In this document: positions 3,368 through 24,000 of the stretch, piece by piece
Layout of the letters: every line of letters starts with the position of its first letter
Position numbering within the stretch: position 1 is the stretch's first letter
Source of the DNA: Planctomycetota bacterium
GTDB lineage: Bacteria; Planctomycetota; MHYJ01; JACQXL01
Direction: 5' to 3'
NCBI GenBank assembly: GCA_043808305.1
Contig: JAZDFB010000016.1
Location: 24,829-48,828, forward strand
Length of the DNA: 24,000 nt
Position numbers and translations under genes: made by a program
Notes under the pieces: generated by a model
Database searches by the model: none
What the model saw: only the letters and a program-made list of their open reading frames with translations
Told to the model about the DNA's origin: nothing

Positions 3368-5017
3368 TTATTTTTTATCGGCTATTTTGATTGTTAGAAT
3401 TTCACCCCTGTATAAAAATACAACTTCATTTGAAGATATTGATTTAATTGTTGTATCGGGATTTAATTTGGAACCCTCACCGTAAGCCACGTTATTAATT
3501 ATTGCGCTCGAAAAAGGCACATATTCAACATATACAACAGGCAGAGATATTTGATTGCCCATAAATGAGATTTTGACAGAGGGCAGCGTATTTTCCTGAG
3601 CTTTAAGATAATACACAATGCCTGTTATCTTGGGTGGGTTACGTAAGAACTCGATAAGAGTCTCAGCTCTGGCTAAAATTACCTCAACCTCTTTAATTAA
3701 ATCATCTATCTTAGCAACATAGTCTGTGTCTTCAACCTCTCTTTTTTGTCTGAGCAGTTTTATCTGAGAAAGTTTAGGATTTATCCCATCGTACTTCTTG
3801 AGGTCAAAAAACTTCTTGGCTTCATCTCTTAATGATACGGCTTGTTGATAAACAACCGCAGCGATTCCGGAAAATAACCTCTCAGCATCATCCCTGATAA
3901 TCATCATCTGATTTTTAGCCGCTTGAGGACCCATCTGCATCACTTTTGTGTATATATCAAGTATCCTGCCGTATGGTTCGGACATCGCATCGCCCCGTTC
4001 TTCTTCCGGAACCTGTTCGCATATTTTCTTCATCTGTTCCAGTTTTTCCTCGGCTTCTGCGAGCAACTTTTCAATGTCTTCTGGGGGGTTTGTAGAAGTG
4101 ATTTGCGTTGTTTTTCCCGGCTTTGTCAACTTCTGCCTGAAAGGATCATCTCTTCCACGTTTTTCAAATACAGATTTCTCTTCAGCAAGAGCATCTTCTT
4201 TTGTTGTTCTTGATATTATAATCTCACCAAGTTGGTTATTCAGTACAATATGCTCCGTAAGAACTATGCCATTTGCATCAATCACATATTCAATTTCTTT
4301 ATATAATGCTGTGGGGCTGGAAACAATAAGATTGCATCGATATTTTGTCTGGTCTTTCTCGCTCTCGGGCATTATTTTCTCTTTTACTATCAATAAAGCC
4401 GGGACAAAATAATTACTTGTATCTAGTAATTTAATAGAATAACTTTGGTTTATTTCAAGCCCTTGGCTAACTAGATATACGCCTATTTCCTGTCCGGTTA
4501 TATAAGGCTCTTCCGGGTTATTTTCAAATTCCTTGCCTTGCAGATCATTAAATACAGAAATACGGGTTTTTCCGCCTTCAGGAACTGCTTTATATTTCAA
4601 AACAACTTCTTTTGCCGAGGGCACGGTCGCTCTGACTTCCGATTTTATTAGCTTCATCCGGTTTTTTTGGCCTGGCGTTGGGGCTTGGATTTCAAATAAT
4701 ATTTCACCTATGATTCTGGTTCCGGCCGCTTCAATCATTTGCTTTTTCAGTTCCATTTCAGACTTTACTTTATATTGCTTATTTTGATCCGTGGATTGAG
4801 CCACTATTAATTCTATTGTCACAGCCTCATAACCCATTTTCCTTTCCTTGCTTCCGGCCAGCTTCCCTATAATAGCATACCATACTTCAGTTGTATTAGT
4901 CGGCGTGGCTGACTGTTCTCCTTCAGCAAAGATTAACGAAGAAATCGTTAAAATACAAAAAATCACTGCGGTTGTTATTTTGGTCACTTTAACTATATGT
5001 TCAAACCGATTTATCAT
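3368..5017 (-). CDS. Secreted 549-aa protein in the PilP position, with a possible PilP-like C-terminal beta domain
   Basis: ATG at 5017 and an N-terminal signal/TM segment ITTAVIFCILTISSLIFAEGE. The centre is a long charged, coiled-coil-like region (EKLLAEAEEKLEQMKKICEQVPEEE). The C-terminal ~90 aa (ITGIVYYL...SSAIINNVAYGEGSKLNPDTTIKSISSNEVVFLYRGEILTIKI) resembles the PilP/GspC-HR style beta domain. It sits exactly between pilO and pilQ. Confidence 0.6.
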   Translation of the reverse strand: MINRFEHIVKVTKITTAVIFCILTISSLIFAEGEQSATPTNTTEVWYAIIGKLAGSKERKMGYEAVTIELIVAQSTDQNKQYKVKSEMELKKQMIEAAGTRIIGEILFEIQAPTPGQKNRMKLIKSEVRATVPSAKEVVLKYKAVPEGGKTRISVFNDLQGKEFENNPEEPYITGQEIGVYLVSQGLEINQSYSIKLLDTSNYFVPALLIVKEKIMPESEKDQTKYRCNLIVSSPTALYKEIEYVIDANGIVLTEHIVLNNQLGEIIISRTTKEDALAEEKSVFEKRGRDDPFRQKLTKPGKTTQITSTNPPEDIEKLLAEAEEKLEQMKKICEQVPEEERGDAMSEPYGRILDIYTKVMQMGPQAAKNQMMIIRDDAERLFSGIAAVVYQQAVSLRDEAKKFFDLKKYDGINPKLSQIKLLRQKREVEDTDYVAKIDDLIKEVEVILARAETLIEFLRNPPKITGIVYYLKAQENTLPSVKISFMGNQISLPVVYVEYVPFSSAIINNVAYGEGSKLNPDTTIKSISSNEVVFLYRGEILTIKIADKK

Positions 5018-5024
5018 AAAAGAG

Positions 5025-5633
5025 TTATTTTTTTTCGGTATTCGGGGAAATATAAGTATAACTGGTTATTTTTACTTCTAATAAATGCCTTATCGCTGTT
5101 CCGGTTTTTTCCACTCCCATAAGATTTGTAGGCCTTAAAGAAATCTTGTCCACCTTAATAAACCTTTTATTTGTCTCCAGTAAATATATAAAATTAATGC
5201 AGTCGTAGAATTCGCCTTCGGCCCTCAGGCTATAAGATATCTTTTCAAATGTCGGTCCGCCACTGCCGGTCGGAGGACCTGATTTCTTAACTTCATCCGA
5301 CACATTTGCTCCGTGCACGACAAGCTTAGCTTCCTGCGCTATTTTAACCATTGAATTCAAGAAATCCTCATAAAGCTCATCTGTTTTGACAGGGAGCAAG
5401 TCCTTTATACCCTCTTTTTCTTTACGTAATACGTCAAGTCTCTTGTCCAACTCAATCATCTGGACTACTTTGGCTTCGGCTTCTTTTACCTGGACTTTAA
5501 CACTTTCTATTTCACCCTGTATCCTTATTAATTTATTATATTGGATAAAATACCCGTAAATAGCCAACCCAATAGCCATAATACCAGGTATAATAATGGT
5601 TAGAATAAGAAGTTTTCGTTCAGTAAGTCTCAT
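5025..5633 (-). CDS. pilO: Type IV pilus assembly protein PilO
   Basis: 202 aa with a short cytoplasmic N-terminus, one TM (LLILTIIIPGIMAIGLAIYGYFI), a coiled coil and a C-terminal globular domain. Its position between pilN and the PilP-position gene fits; the pilN stop is 1 nt upstream. Confidence 0.7.
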   Translation of the reverse strand: MRLTERKLLILTIIIPGIMAIGLAIYGYFIQYNKLIRIQGEIESVKVQVKEAEAKVVQMIELDKRLDVLRKEKEGIKDLLPVKTDELYEDFLNSMVKIAQEAKLVVHGANVSDEVKKSGPPTGSGGPTFEKISYSLRAEGEFYDCINFIYLLETNKRFIKVDKISLRPTNLMGVEKTGTAIRHLLEVKITSYTYISPNTEKK

Positions 5634-10605: not shown

Positions 10606-11832
10606 ATGCCAAAATCTAATATCCAACGCCTGATATCCTTTTTCGGCATTAACGCCAGCATCACCGCCATGGTAGTCATGGTCATATTCGTCGGCCTGGG
10701 CGAAAAGATGGCCGAACGATTCCTGCCCATCTATATCCTGGCTCTGGGCGGCTCAACCTTCGCCGTCGGTTTCCTCAACGCCATGGATAACCTCTTAAGC
10801 GCCCTCTATTCCTTCCCGGGCGGCTGGATAAGCGACAAAGTCGGGCACAAAAAAGCTCTTATCCTTTTCACACTGATTGCATTGGCCGGCTACGCCATAG
10901 TCATTGCCTTCCCTATCTGGCAAGCGGTCCTAATCGGCTCCATATTCTTTATCTCCTGGACCGCCGTTTCATTGCCGGCTGTAATGAGCCTGGTGTCCCG
11001 GGCCGTACCCAAGGATAAAAGGACCATGGGCGTCACGGTCCATTCATTTGTCCGCCGGATTCCCATGGCGCTCGGCCCGATTATGGGCGGACTCCTAATC
11101 GGCGCTTATGGAAACGTCAATGGCGTCAGAATAGCCTTCGTCGCTGCATTCATCCTCGGATTAATATCCATCATCATCCAGTGGCTATTCATGGAAGACA
11201 ACTCGCCGCAGAAGTCAGAAGCCAAGCCCAACAGACCCGGCGGCCTGTTCAAGAACTTCAACCCGGCACTGCGTAACCTACTGGTATCAGACATACTCAT
11301 CCGATTTGCCGAGCAGATACCCTACGCCTTTGTCGTGGTCTGGGTCGTTAACAATATCGGACTGAGCGCCTTCGATTTCGGCATCCTGACAACGGTGGAA
11401 ATGGCTACGGCCATGCTGGTTTACATACCCGTAGCATACCTAGCCGACCGGACCACCAAGAAACCGTTCGTAATAATCACCTTCGCATTTTTCACGGCAT
11501 TTCCGCTGGTGCTGGCATTTTCCCGAACCTTTCCAATTTTAATATTCGCTTTTATCATCCGCGGACTGAAAGAGTTCGGCGAACCGACCCGCAAAGCCCT
11601 GATAATGGACCTGGCTCCCGAAGACGCCAAGGCCACCACCTTCGGAGCCTATTATCTGGTCCGTGACGTGATAGTCGCCATGGCCGCCCTGACCAGCGCA
11701 TTTCTCTGGAACATCTCGCCCGAGACCAACTTCATCGTCGCCTCTGCCTGCGGGCTGGTCGGCACCATTTGGTTCGCACTGTTCGGCAAAGACCTCAAGA
11801 ATATTAGTGCCACTTCGACCAAAGGGAGTTAG
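10606..11832 (+). CDS. MFS transporter
   Basis: 408 aa, strongly hydrophobic with multiple TM segments. An MFS motif-A-like loop, GGWISDKVGHKK (GxxxD[RK]xG[RH][RK]), is present. Confidence 0.8.
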   Translation: MPKSNIQRLISFFGINASITAMVVMVIFVGLGEKMAERFLPIYILALGGSTFAVGFLNAMDNLLSALYSFPGGWISDKVGHKKALILFTLIALAGYAIVIAFPIWQAVLIGSIFFISWTAVSLPAVMSLVSRAVPKDKRTMGVTVHSFVRRIPMALGPIMGGLLIGAYGNVNGVRIAFVAAFILGLISIIIQWLFMEDNSPQKSEAKPNRPGGLFKNFNPALRNLLVSDILIRFAEQIPYAFVVVWVVNNIGLSAFDFGILTTVEMATAMLVYIPVAYLADRTTKKPFVIITFAFFTAFPLVLAFSRTFPILIFAFIIRGLKEFGEPTRKALIMDLAPEDAKATTFGAYYLVRDVIVAMAALTSAFLWNISPETNFIVASACGLVGTIWFALFGKDLKNISATSTKGS

Positions 11833-21092: not shown

Positions 21093-21104
21093 TATTAGTG
21101 GCTA

Positions 21105-21158
21105 TTCTATGTACCCTTTCAACCACATATTGGCAGATGTAAACTGACCATTCTTTAA
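21105..21158 (-). pseudogene. Orphan 3'-terminal fragment (17 codons + stop) of a diverged paralogue of the fibre-like gene
   Basis: The minus strand reads KNGQFTSANMWLKGYIE*. The C-terminus of the 21244-22344 gene reads KNGQFCSTNIWLRGYIE*. Thirteen of 17 residues are identical, and 9 of those 13 codons differ only at synonymous third positions. Homology stops abruptly at about 21158. Confidence 0.65.
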
Positions 21159-21243
21159 GAGCCAGTTGGAGCGTAGCGACTTATCCGCAGGACGCCAGCC
21201 GACAAGGCTGAGCGCTGGCGCTTATCCCGAGTCCTCGAGGGAA
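21159..21243 (+). repeat. Divergent relative of the M1 repeat plus a GC-rich hairpin, filling the gap between the fibre gene stop and the orphan fragment
   Basis: gccagttggagcgtagcgacttatcc shares the gagcgtagcga core with M1 (ggcagtttgagcgtagcgaattactgcc). A hairpin gccagc-cgacaaggctgagc-gctggc follows. The motif cttatcc occurs twice. Confidence 0.4.
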
Positions 21244-22344
21244 CTATTCAATATAGCCACGTAACCATATGTTCGTAGAACAAAATTGTCCGTTTTTAGT
21301 GGCTATGACCCTAATCTGCCGTGCGCTATCCGTGGCAATCGTCGCTTCCTTATAAAGATTGTTACAGAAGTTAGCAATGTTCTGCCAGATGAAATGGATG
21401 GCAGACGAACCCCAATCCGTTCCGGCCCTCCGGCCATAGACCCAGAGCTGTTGCTCCAACCCCATCGGCACGGACATAGCGTTGAATTGGATTTCCAGTA
21501 TCACCGCCTTAACCACCGGCGGAATGAACCCCGGCAGGTCAACTATCTGGTCCACGTTATTGGCCGACTGATCCGTAAAGACCATCGTCTGGGACTGAAG
21601 CAGAGTCAGCATATTGCCCGGCGCGAAGCCCTGCCACTGGAAATTAGAGCCGGACTCGTTGTAAGTAAGAACCGCCCCGTTACTGGGCGCATTAGCCGCG
21701 GCCAGTTTGGACGGCTTGACGCAGGCATCCGCAATCTTACCGCTGGTAACAGCAAGGTCCGCAATCTTTTGCTCCGAAACCGCCTGGTCCGTAATCTCGT
21801 CCCCGGTTATTCCCGGCGTAATCGGTCTGGTAATCCCACCGCCGCCCGCCATTGGTTTCCACTCGAACTTAGACTGAGCCTGATTGAAGGTCGGGATTTC
21901 ACCGTCTGCGGGAGAATCAACAGCCGCTAACTTAATTGGTGTTACCTCGCCCGCGCTTATCTTGGACGCCGTAACGGCACCGTCGTTTAGTTTGGTAGAT
22001 GTCACCGCGTGGGTGGCAATCTTGTCGGCGATAACCGCGTTATCCTGCAGTTTGTCGGAACTGACTGCGCCGTCCGCAATCTTGGGCGTAGTCACGGCGT
22101 TATCTTGGAGCGGCACGGTGCTAACATCACTGCCCAGCTTGGCTAATGTAACCACGCCATCGGCGATATCCTCGGTCCCGATTTGGCCTGAGCCGATGTC
22201 AACTGACTTAATAGTCCCGTCCTTAATCTTTTCAGAAGTCACCGCATCATCAGCGATATTTTCTTCGGCCACCACTCCGGGCATCACGCCCGGCACGACA
22301 TTAATAATCTCCCTGGGCTTGGTTATTCTCTCTTCGTATGCCAT
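21244..22344 (-). CDS. Fibre-like repeat protein: two blocks of ~10-aa DxAVTxxKIx repeats plus a C-terminal globular domain
   Basis: Block 1 is DNAVTTPKIA DGAVSSDKLQ DNAVIADKIA THAVTSTKLN DGAVTASKIS AGEVTPIKLA; block 2 is DQAVSEQKIA DLAVTSGKIA DACVKPSKLA. Each block is followed by a related module: AVDSPADGEIPTFNQAQSKFEWKP and AANAPSNGAVLTYNESGSNFQWQG. The start is preceded by aggtgctat. The strand call is supported by the synonymous-site pattern against the orphan fragment. Confidence 0.75.
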   Translation of the reverse strand: MAYEERITKPREIINVVPGVMPGVVAEENIADDAVTSEKIKDGTIKSVDIGSGQIGTEDIADGVVTLAKLGSDVSTVPLQDNAVTTPKIADGAVSSDKLQDNAVIADKIATHAVTSTKLNDGAVTASKISAGEVTPIKLAAVDSPADGEIPTFNQAQSKFEWKPMAGGGGITRPITPGITGDEITDQAVSEQKIADLAVTSGKIADACVKPSKLAAANAPSNGAVLTYNESGSNFQWQGFAPGNMLTLLQSQTMVFTDQSANNVDQIVDLPGFIPPVVKAVILEIQFNAMSVPMGLEQQLWVYGRRAGTDWGSSAIHFIWQNIANFCNNLYKEATIATDSARQIRVIATKNGQFCSTNIWLRGYIE

Positions 22345-22406
22345 ATAGCACCTATTCCCTTTCGGTCATAATTTCAAATTCCATATTCCAAATTTACAAT
22401 TAATAA

Positions 22407-22443
22407 GTGTGGTCGGGCCCCGCTGCAGCGGGACCACTCACAC
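22407..22443 (-). terminator. GC-rich stem-loop between the 268-aa gene and the fibre-like gene; possible attenuator or partial terminator
   Basis: The plus strand reads gtgtggtcgggccccgc-tgca-gcgggaccactcacac. It begins 8 nt after the stop of the upstream gene. There is no clean U-run, only cttatt. Confidence 0.35.
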
Positions 22444-22450
22444 TAACCGT

Positions 22451-23257
22451 TTACGGTACGGTTATACCGATCTGCACCTCCAGTTGGAACAACGCTCCGT
22501 TAAGCACAAACACGCAGTAGGTATCGTCGACACCGGTGGTCAGCGCGAATGTATCGCACTTGGCCGGGTCTCGCATACCGTTAAGGAAGTTCATCAAGTT
22601 GGTATTCTGGCGCGCAATAGTAGCCGCGTCAAAGCCCGACTGAAAAATGGTCAACCCAGCCCTGATGGCCTGCTGGTTGATACCCATCTTTAATGAACCC
22701 TCCAAACCTGCCTGAGCAATGTTATACGGTGCGCCGCCTTGCCAGACATCGCCGGCTCTAAACCAATCCATTGCCACATTGTAACCGACCAAAAGAGCGG
22801 CATTAATGGCAGATACTCCGCGCCCGCGGATTTTATCGCCTGTCAGACGCAAGGTCTTTTTGCCTGCCTTCTCCGACCAGTTGCCCTTCTTATTAAGCAC
22901 GTTCTCGGTAAACTTCTTGGCCTTGATTCCTCCGACTTCGGCGAATGCCGAATCCAGATTGTCATTCCACCTTTTAAAGGAATCCTGAATGTTTTTACCG
23001 TGCGCCGTGGTCAACTCCGTGGCATTCCTGCCGTTCCGGGCTACGAAGGTGTCCTTTATCATAGGCGAATAGCCCATGTTAGAAGGACCGGCCAGTTTGG
23101 CAATGTAAGTCCCGTCATTACCAATCTTAGCCTTGCGGCGGTCATTAATCCGGGTGGCGTTAATAACCAAACCGTCCGCATACTTTGCCTCCATATCCGC
23201 TGCTACTTCCTGGAAGTCCGGGATCAAAAGCGTGTACTTCATCTTCAGATTAAACAT
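22451..23257 (-). CDS. Hypothetical 268-aa protein of unknown family, with no signal peptide or TM
   Basis: The ATG at 23257 (MFNLKMKYTLLIPDFQ...) is preceded by ggggtgataaat. The track's TTG at 23272 would include the SD itself. The ORF is long and uninterrupted, and is co-oriented and closely spaced with the fibre-like gene. Confidence 0.7.
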   Translation of the reverse strand: MFNLKMKYTLLIPDFQEVAADMEAKYADGLVINATRINDRRKAKIGNDGTYIAKLAGPSNMGYSPMIKDTFVARNGRNATELTTAHGKNIQDSFKRWNDNLDSAFAEVGGIKAKKFTENVLNKKGNWSEKAGKKTLRLTGDKIRGRGVSAINAALLVGYNVAMDWFRAGDVWQGGAPYNIAQAGLEGSLKMGINQQAIRAGLTIFQSGFDAATIARQNTNLMNFLNGMRDPAKCDTFALTTGVDDTYCVFVLNGALFQLEVQIGITVP

Positions 23258-23285
23258 ATTTATCACCCCCAATCTGTCTTTCAGT

Positions 23286-23316
23286 AAGCGGATTAAGCGG
23301 ATTTAACCGATTAACC
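23286..23316. repeat. Three and a half tandem 9-bp repeats (aagcggatt aagcggatt taaccgatt aacc), 29-59 nt upstream of the 268-aa gene start
   Basis: Read directly from the sequence. On the coding (minus) strand it is ggtt aatcggtta aatccgctt aatccgctt. Confidence 0.7.
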
Positions 23317-23446
23317 TTTTTACTCATAGAACTTATGTTCAACGGCTATTCTGCTGAGCTCTCGGCAGAACTACCGATCTGACTTTCTTAGTCGCTGTTA
23401 GACCACAGGGAGTTACAGCGACTTAGTCCCGACTATTTCGTCGGGA

Positions 23447-23542
23447 TTATTTCTTCTTCCCCTTCTTCTCCAAATAATCTAAAATGACTTCGACAATTAC
23501 CTCGATAATCCGCCTCCAAAAACCTGACATCATTCTGAACAT
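23447..23542 (-). CDS. Candidate 31-aa small protein: an amphipathic/hydrophobic helix with a Lys-rich tail
   Basis: ATG at 23542 preceded by gagaggatggtttat, a good SD at suitable spacing. Translation MFRMMSGFWRRIIEVIVEVILDYLEKKGKKK*. The hairpin tcccgac-gaaata-gtcggga follows the stop directly. The ORF is too short for the supplied track. Confidence 0.4.
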   Translation of the reverse strand: MFRMMSGFWRRIIEVIVEVILDYLEKKGKKK

Positions 23543-23592
23543 ATAAACCATCCTCTCTCACCGCAAAGAATGCAAAGGTCGCAAAGAAGAAA

Positions 23593-24000
23593 CTATTTCT
23601 TTGAGGTCTCTGTGCCTCTGTGGCTATTTAGAAATTCATATATTGTTTGTATTGGAACTATTCCTGCCATCGTAGTAATAAGTTGTCCGTTATGCACATT
23701 GACCCAAACCGCTATCCCGATTACTTCGAATGTCTTACTGTCATAGACGGGTCCCCCGGAATTTCCGGGTAATATGGGTGCAGATATCCCCCAATAAGAA
23801 TCCTCAATAACCGAAATGATGCCGTATGAAGGGCGCACCTTCAAGCCCAGAGAACATCCAACGGCATAAACAGGACTAAAGAGATACGGCGTGTAATCTT
23901 TAGGAGCCAGTATCGCCGAATAAGACAGTTTCTTTGATGGTTTGATTAAAGCCAAGTCCTTTATTGTATCTGTGACTAGGACAGTTGCTTCTATCGCTAT
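23593..24000 (-). CDS. Trypsin-like (S1/DegP-type) serine protease; the N-terminal part lies beyond the right window edge
   Basis: Catalytic Ser motif PGNSGGPV. The frame stays open upstream of the track's TTG start to position 24000 (IAIEATVLVTDTIKDLALIKP), giving the catalytic Asp motif DLALIK. No PDZ domain follows. Confidence 0.8.
   Translation of the reverse strand: MAIEATVLVTDTIKDLALIKPSKKLSYSAILAPKDYTPYLFSPVYAVGCSLGLKVRPSYGIISVIEDSYWGISAPILPGNSGGPVYDSKTFEVIGIAVWVNVHNGQLITTMAGIVPIQTIYEFLNSHRGTETSKK

Follow-up and report, generated by a model that had tools for sequence, protein, structure and literature searches.

The closest described counterpart of the genes reported here comes from Bdellovibrio bacteriovorus, whose chromosome carries twenty-one phage-like fibre genes encoding the mosaic adhesive trimer (MAT) fibres (Caulton et al. 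2024, PMC10769870). MAT proteins are ~1000 amino acids (aa) long and have a signal peptide, a conserved beta-rich N-terminal domain of ~130 aa, and variable C-terminal tips that are often of the S74 type (PMC10769870). Caulton et al. argue that, in a fibre family, it is the constant end that keeps the fibre on the cell and the diversified end that deals with the targets (PMC10769870). We analysed a 24,000-nucleotide (nt) window of contig JAZDFB010000016.1 (hereafter C16; other contigs of the genome are cited in the same way) from a Planctomycetota bacterium (assembly GCA_043808305.1, genome G000; 2.99 Mb, 92 per cent complete), and searched the whole assembly at both the DNA and the protein level. 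Near its right end, the window carries a minus-strand gene for a 268-aa protein, P273, followed by a gene for a short phage-tail-fibre-type protein, FIB. We take these two co-transcribed genes to be the core of a cassette, of which the window holds the full version. Our preferred reading, to which we give about even chances, is that the window contains one copy of a lineage-restricted, many-copy, recombining, and regulated surface-fibre cassette. By analogy with phage fibres and the Bdellovibrio MATs, its products would most likely serve as surface fibres or adhesins.

Like the MATs, the planctomycete genes form a chromosomal, non-phage family of mosaic fibres with many copies in a small genome (twenty-one in Bdellovibrio and ~15–27 here), in which one end is constant and the rest is shuffled. 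Unlike the MATs, the planctomycete fibres are only 320–520 aa long across the genome, carry their constant domain at the C-terminus, and lack both S74 and a signal peptide; on inspection, none of the fifteen full-length fibres (0/15) has a hydrophobic N-terminal segment. They also differ in being paired with a separate gene for P273 and, in some copies, with a separate S1 or S24 peptidase. Because a signal peptide, a conserved N-terminal domain, a set of variable tips, and S74 are all absent, the sequences indicate that the family is analogous to MAT and not a member of it.

Phage fibre and decoration proteins are the other point of comparison, represented by PHROG 892 (E about 1e-30) and by PDB 9EG4 chain H, which is orf16 of Legionella phage LME-1 (PMC12407071). 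These proteins share with FIB a shaft of homologous 10-aa ‘AVTxxKIxD’ repeats. In contrast to phage fibres, the planctomycete proteins are accompanied by no virion genes in the locus or the genome, and neither the C-terminal tip nor P273 has a phage counterpart in PHROGs or BFVD.

FIB (21244..22344, minus strand, 366 aa) begins with a short N-terminus. Its 10-aa ‘xAVTxxKIxD’ repeats follow in two blocks, both of which close with a ‘KLAAxDxPxDGxxxxYN...F.W’ module, and the protein ends in an all-beta tip of ~125 aa. An earlier interpretation of the window, made from its letters without database searches (the sequence-only reading), had described a decapeptide-repeat protein resembling phage tail fibres, and both parts of this description held up. 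Identity at an offset of ten residues was 0.28, compared to 0.079 ± 0.02 in shuffled sequences, and FIB matched phrog_892 ‘tail fiber’ (E 9.7e-31) along with seventeen other PHROGs, mostly tail fibre or tail proteins. The shaft repeats also matched PDB 9eg4_H (E 5.3e-5). No match to Pfam was found, including to S74, and a profile of the tip found nothing among PDB sequences.

P273 (22451..23257, minus strand) is named after a 273-aa reading from a TTG codon; since its homologues are 266–270 aa long, we prefer the ATG start that yields 268 aa. As the sequence-only reading had suspected, it matches no described family. Neither its sequence nor its profile found a match in Pfam, NCBIfam, PHROGs, PADLOC, or the PDB sequences. 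An AlphaFold2 model based on an alignment of thirty-eight homologues was confident, with a predicted local distance difference test (pLDDT) score of 92.7 and a predicted template modelling (TM) score (pTM) of 0.75, and Foldseek searches of the PDB and BFVD with this model returned nothing at E ≤ 0.001 (best E 0.28 and 0.79; query-normalized TM ≤ 0.20). The modelled fold is mainly alpha-helical, with one small three-stranded sheet; an N-terminal strand and a C-terminal hairpin surround its long helices. Its strongest conserved feature is an invariant loop, R-x-T-G-D-K-I-R-G, and it has no signal peptide.

The same earlier interpretation had suggested that P273 might be a small protein of the shell or capsid kind, part of a particle matured by the neighbouring protease. 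The size of P273 and that neighbour are the sole support for this idea, although natural protease–P273 fusions (described below) loosely recall phage protease–scaffold fusions. The helical model with its three-stranded sheet and the empty Foldseek and profile searches do not support it: no HK97, jelly-roll, capsid, encapsulin, or shell match was found in the PDB or BFVD, and we regard the idea as hardly credible.

Nor is the module the single accessory cluster that had been proposed. It is instead one member of a large dispersed family with ~15–20 cassette copies in the genome. The assembly contains eighteen P273 genes and twenty-seven open reading frames (ORFs) of the FIB family, of which fifteen are full-length, two are cut by contig ends, and about ten are intact C-terminal fragments of 46–116 aa. 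There are also five close copies of the protease, seven copies of a 31-aa peptide gene, and four Zn-ribbon genes. A FIB gene directly follows the P273 gene on the same strand in ten of eighteen cases. Five loci (C16/C19, C98, C56, C155, and partly C44) show the full order, which consists of a divergent sigma-like gene, Zn-ribbon, protease, peptide, P273, and FIB. Cassettes on C14 and C54 keep the sigma-like gene, peptide, P273, and FIB but have no S1 protease, and an S24 (LexA-type) peptidase occupies the protease position on C14. A rough estimate from gene counts and lengths puts the cassettes at ~1 per cent of the 3-Mb genome. Most of them sit among ordinary genes. The window’s copy lies beside tilS, and Pfam identified both of the housekeeping genes previously noted on its left, as a Methyltransf_11 protein and a PP-loop (TilS-type) protein.

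Could these loci be what is left of a decayed prophage or tailocin, or do they supply a resident phage-like particle with spare fibres? The PHROG tail-fibre matches point in that direction, as do the phage-like regulators (the sigma factor and the S24 repressor-like peptidase) and the mosaic character of the paralogues. Against this, searches of the 92 per cent complete assembly detected none of the particle genes for sheath, HK97 capsid, and gp25 (PF04984, PF05065, and PF04965), which argues against a prophage remnant, and there were no structural phage genes at the ~30 loci of the family. The ORFs are intact and the P273 types are conserved at 70–87 per cent identity across genera, indicating selection rather than decay. 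The sequence-only reading had seen no integrase, terminase, portal, or tail-tube gene, and we likewise saw no prophage genes flanking the module, either in the window or in the adjoining stretch of contig C19. We therefore consider a phage remnant or spare-part origin very improbable.

Outside this genome, the P273 profile detected the family in 7 of 401 Planctomycetota genomes. These comprise all six genomes of the window’s own family (G000 included) and one from a sister family, and every one is multi-copy; copy counts in the relatives are lower bounds, with six to nine candidates scored per genome. Among 1.84 billion representative proteins, P273 homologues form 230 clusters, and the metagenome-assembled genomes holding homologues are named Planctomycetota or Candidatus Brocadiia in their sources. 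We found no paper describing the family.

The genes of the module also keep company with each other. Protease, peptide, P273, and FIB follow one another at five loci in G000, and protease, P273, and FIB are found in the same order in G051, which belongs to the same genus, and in G260, which belongs to another, so that the co-occurrence expected of a four-gene module is borne out. The triad of protease, P273, and FIB is found again in GCA_016208805.1. In addition, there are natural fusions between neighbours. Two paralogues in G015 and the metagenome proteins P0081 and P0101 join a signal anchor, the protease, a linker, and P273 in a single chain, and the catalytic motifs are intact in the G015 fusions that were inspected. 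In P0127, P273 forms the N-terminal domain and is followed by tail-fibre-like sequence.

We constructed a maximum-likelihood phylogeny of thirty-seven P273 proteins. Copies from four genomes interleave in this tree with 100/98–100 support, from which it follows that the P273 types are older than the genera. The supported groups include C155 with G051 and G260 (100/98), C132 with G260 and G102 (100/100), and the window’s copy with GCA_016208805.1 (100/100). In the last of these pairs, the P273 proteins are 87 per cent identical, the genomic place is different, the proteases are 54 per cent identical, and the tips differ. Across orthologous cassettes, P273 is 70–82 per cent identical and the protease is 61–67 per cent identical. 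The FIB tip of such cassettes is 62 per cent identical within the genus and unrecognizable in G260, where the two fibres examined share an ~80-aa tip of their own.

Within a genome, the tips are much alike. Their identity is 64–90 per cent within G000, 73–87 per cent within G051, and 55–70 per cent between the two, and the between-genome range falls almost wholly below the within-genome ranges. Among the 401 genomes, the window’s tip type was detected only in its own genus. Nucleotide identity along the cassettes of G000 is 80–97 per cent in the protease and peptide, ~50 per cent in P273, and 60–94 per cent at the 3′ end of FIB. The fibre paralogues are mosaics in which chimeric segments are shared between copies, with N-terminal parts that are 37–85 per cent identical and the conserved ~125-aa domain at the C-terminus. 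Our reading is that, inside each genome, gene conversion homogenizes both tip and flanks and selection keeps the P273 types apart. One locus (L013) suggested that P273 and the fibre N-terminus are strictly inherited together; three others (C132, C44, and C56) contradicted this, and the idea was dropped.

Gene order, gene fusions, and the evolutionary pattern are direct observations, from which we infer each functional step of the surface-fibre scheme. Judging by its position, the sigma factor would switch the operon on. FIB would trimerize as phage fibres do, given the homology of its repeats. Gene order and the P273–fibre fusions suggest that P273 binds at or near the N-terminus of FIB, and the signal anchor–protease–P273 fusions suggest that the protease acts on P273 or on the complex outside the cytoplasmic membrane. 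All fibres of a genome share one tip, which is replaced between genera, so the tip may bind one lineage-specific structure. Functional diversity would then be supplied by the ~18 old and conserved P273 types.

Several observations weigh against this scheme. About one-third of the fibre genes follow unrelated partner proteins of 200–300 aa, some P273 copies are solitary, and the protease–P273 fusions of G015 have no adjacent fibre gene. P273 and the fifteen full-length fibres have no signal peptide by which they would reach the surface; the protease and the protease–P273 fusions do have signal anchors, a contradiction where the genes are separate. Outside the tip, the fibres of C132 and C44 are 85 per cent alike, yet their P273 proteins are 29 per cent alike, a mismatch that weakens a model of specific docking between P273 and the fibre. 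Finally, an AlphaFold2 model of the tip (152 aa, sixteen sequences) reached a pLDDT of 44, with no confident fold.

We also considered whether the alternative fibre partners are related to P273. The one partner compared gave an hhalign probability of 0.1 per cent, and this relationship was rejected. Pfam searches with four of the alternative partners returned a weak FN3 match in only one of them.

The polarity of the fibre may also be the reverse of what we propose. In that case, the tip would anchor the fibre to the cell’s own fast-evolving surface, and P273, at the N-terminal end, would be a diversified working head, binding or modifying a variety of targets. This arrangement fits the logic of Caulton et al., in which the constant end serves retention (PMC10769870), because the constant end here is the C-terminal tip. 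P273 is, moreover, the part that is both diversified and conserved across genera, and its invariant Gly/Arg/Asp loop is suggestive of a binding or active site. The tethering of P273 to a membrane anchor in the protease–P273 fusions, however, would be more natural for a base than for a head at the far end. In phage and adenovirus fibres, the N-terminus is typically the attached end, which also runs counter to a reversed polarity. On balance, we think the reversed arrangement unlikely.

The remaining genes of the cassette elaborate on the surface-fibre scheme, starting with the protease at the window’s edge. All four minus-strand ORFs named by the sequence-only reading were found as claimed. Its statement that the module continues past the window holds in part: contig C16 stops exactly at base 24000, but the protease gene resumes on contig C19 across a putative join. 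The last 72 nt of C16 match the end of C19 perfectly in reverse complement, and joining the two contigs would complete the gene. An identical 60-mer also lies inside C56; because of this, the join stays putative, and we attribute the assembly break at the end of C16 to the same recurrence.

The window contains the C-terminal 135 aa of the protease (23593..24000, minus strand), an HtrA-type S1 domain without PDZ that carries the motifs DLALIK and GNSGGP and matches Pfam Trypsin_2 with E 2e-9. The other 107 residues, which form the N-terminus and include a lipoprotein-like signal (..YIIAC), come from the sequence of the C19 end (55738–56058). When joined, the protein is 242 aa long, equal to the C98 paralogue, and its matches to Trypsin_2 and TIGR02037 have E 4e-17 and 1.4e-16. 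It contains TAAHVV, DLALIK, and GNSGGP, corresponding to the His-Asp-Ser triad of a chymotrypsin-fold protease domain, and all of its NCBIfam scores are far under the equivalog cut-offs. No PDZ match was found in the joined protein, which stops ~30 residues past the protease domain. Because its N-terminus is positively charged at the start and contains a hydrophobic stretch as well as a lipobox-like IIAC, the protease is predicted to be an exported lipoprotein. The sequence-only reading had cast it as a dedicated maturation protease. We do not find such a role to be a general one, given that the S1 protease is found beside only five of the eighteen P273 copies and that the C14 and C54 cassettes lack it, with C14 having the S24 peptidase in its place.

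The 31-aa amphipathic peptide (MFRMMSGFWRRIIEVIVEVILDYLEKKGKKK; 23447..23542, minus strand) is preceded by the Shine–Dalgarno-like sequence GAGAGGA, as previously observed. All seven copies in the genome keep the reading frame, the length (30–31 aa), and the Shine–Dalgarno-like sequence. Synonymous and non-synonymous codon changes between close copies occur at ratios of 9:2, 11:4, and 9:4, and the peptide gene always lies directly upstream of a P273 gene, with the protease present or not. We conclude from these codon changes and the conservation that the peptide is a real gene. One of the protease–P273 fusions (L010 in G015:C20, ORF 3470–5401, minus strand) has, within the first ~50 residues before its membrane anchor, an amphipathic stretch, MFKKIFKGILKVAVEVLLTIIKRKVEKK, that resembles the window’s peptide; this is a low-complexity likeness that could be due to chance.

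The genes are separated by stable hairpins, as the earlier interpretation had noted. Three consecutive hairpins lie between the peptide and P273 genes (23300..23446, minus strand; inverted repeats I2 and I5), with an RNA folding z of −4.55 relative to shuffled sequences. Another lies between the P273 and FIB genes (22345..22450, minus strand; inverted repeat I4), with a minimum free energy of −32.5 kcal/mol and a z of −3.05. The C98 and C56 copies retain the hairpins of 23300–23446, with 83–91 per cent nucleotide identity to the window. A simple terminator scan gave no more hits than the shuffled expectation. Both hairpin regions look similar to dispersed hairpin repeats reported for this genome.

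Upstream of the protease, C19 contains a Zn-ribbon gene (92 aa, four-cysteine), a divergent gene for a protein like sigma-70 factors of the extracytoplasmic function (ECF) group, and a gene with an HxxxCxxC motif. The sigma-like protein matches TIGR02937 across residues 29–179 (E 5e-10; 39.2 bits against a cut-off of 42.9) and, below threshold, PF04542 (19.5 bits against a cut-off of 24). Its best PDB matches are ECF sigma factors. In the C14 copy, PF04542 scores 26.7 bits, above the cut-off, and the same family is also listed for the L013 copy. The gene adjoining the sigma-like gene (C19 53892–54452) has the motif HLRQCKKC together with a DUF2582 winged helix, and it lacks a membrane segment. 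Its equivalents carry HLRTCADC (C56 copy) and HLQECAAC (L013), and the zf-HC2 match in the zinc-finger partner gene is below cut-off (E 4.4e-4). We interpret the sigma-like gene and its zinc-finger/winged-helix neighbour as a putative pair of ECF-like sigma and anti-sigma factors.

This arrangement recalls the sigmaE–RseA–DegS system of E. coli, in which a membrane-anchored HtrA-type S1 protease is likewise found with an ECF-like sigma and a zinc-finger (HxxxCxxC) partner. The two differ in that the planctomycete protease has no PDZ domain and is co-transcribed with cargo rather than with the regulators. Since the putative anti-sigma factor has no membrane segment, its DegS-style cleavage by an exported protease would be impossible.

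Further along C19 are an EcoO109I-type restriction enzyme and a methylase, followed by an HTH_23 protein and a SIR2_2 protein. The region C19:49421–53564, across the putative join from the window, resembles a defence island and comprises these four genes, with SIR2_2 being 520 aa long, the EcoO109I-type enzyme a restriction endonuclease, and the methylase of the N6/N4 DNA type. With a type II restriction–modification pair and a SIR2_2 protein in the flank, the cassette might itself be a conflict or anti-phage system, in which the fibre-like protein would sense phage parts or act as a decoy for them and P273 and the protease would be the effector. The protease domain resembles the RT-protease and LmuA models of PADLOC 2.0, the fibre repeats touch PD-Lambda-5_A (E 1e-5), and the lack of signal peptides is compatible with a cytoplasmic role. 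These PADLOC matches, however, involve only the generic trypsin domain and fifty-eight repeat residues, and P273, the Zn-ribbon protein, and the peptide have no match; the locus is not a member of any known system in PADLOC. The location of most cassettes among ordinary genes, here tilS, also speaks against a defence role, and 15–20 near-parallel copies with one common tip are unlike known defence systems. An anti-phage function is thus doubtful in our view, and we keep to the surface-fibre reading.

The fibre genes have also left fragments in the genome. At 21102..21161 (minus strand), the window contains an orphan 3′ remnant of another fibre paralogue (...LLKNGQFTSANMWLKGYIE, then stop), which is 18–20 codons long and whose residues match the C-terminus of the C132 fibre. 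A hairpin-bearing spacer (21162–21243) lies between this remnant and the FIB gene. Similar remnants are found behind fibre genes on C14, C126, and C77, and the frames of all orphan 3′ fragments are still open. Orphan fragments of this kind, the window’s remnant included, fit an origin by recombination.

Polymorphic toxin loci of the Rhs and contact-dependent inhibition (CDI) types also hold orphan C-terminal modules. As in those loci, displaced 3′ fragments gather behind or away from the full genes, and the paralogues are recombination mosaics. Unlike in Rhs and CDI loci, the orphan pieces here are the conserved gene end and not alternative toxin tips, and there are no immunity genes.

Several repeats were observed near the fragments. 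A GC-rich, ORF-poor repeat of ~560 nt, with 82–90 per cent identity between copies, lies at C73:12364–12926 and ends in ‘...AAAACAAATAAACCGGTTATTTGTTGATTTTAAGCA’. Further copies are at C123:14324–14918, C50:616–1147, C14:23146–23667, C14:134250–134682, C27:14606–14923, and C153:1811–2006. Three of the copies run directly into an orphan 3′ piece of a fibre gene, and the junction falls on exactly the same base each time, at the codons for GLEQQLWVYGRR. Either a mobile element or an undescribed RNA might be at work here, targeting the end of the fibre gene or carrying it along. A group II intron or known non-coding RNA beside the orphan fragments was considered and rejected, with no Rfam match at E ≤ 0.01. 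Other orphan fragments (C3:~30963–31120, C149:~36300–36450, and C8:~11100–11250) are preceded by short tandem DNA repeats with units of ~20–40 nt, such as ‘GGGGCTAAGTAGTAATATACCCCGGTATATAGGGTATAATACT’ × 3 on C3. At approximately six to seven of twenty-two loci, genes for lipoproteins with C-terminal HEAT/PBS-lyase repeats (e.g. C105:1553–2773 and C130:693–1766) converge on the 3′ end of a fibre gene or fragment. These lipoprotein genes belong to a repeat-linked cluster of 266 ORFs, and their estimated enrichment over chance is mild; one neighbour was confirmed to have HEAT repeats.

A fuller version of the surface-fibre reading can be put forward, although only tentatively. It holds that the cassettes encode an undescribed surface appendage, a short phage-derived trimeric fibre that sits on, or is capped by, the fold-orphan P273 and exists in ~15–20 ancient variants per genome. 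Gene conversion would keep one lineage-specific tip on all of the variants, the tip would be swapped wholesale between genera, and the orphan 3′ fragments would be the scars or landing pads of this process. The appendage could be the main device by which small-genome groundwater planctomycetes attach to partner cells or particles. If the surface-fibre reading holds, these planctomycetes would be a second bacterial lineage, unrelated to Bdellovibrio, to use phage fibre parts as a large chromosomal repertoire. The logic would be unlike that of the MATs, with a separate fold-orphan partner, sigma switches and proteases belonging to the system itself, and a tip that is uniform within a genome and exchanged between genera. 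The contrast between old, stable P273 types and homogenized flanks would offer a clean natural example of selective gene conversion. With ~1 per cent of the genome given over to them, the cassettes are probably important to the way in which these uncultured planctomycetes live in groundwater.

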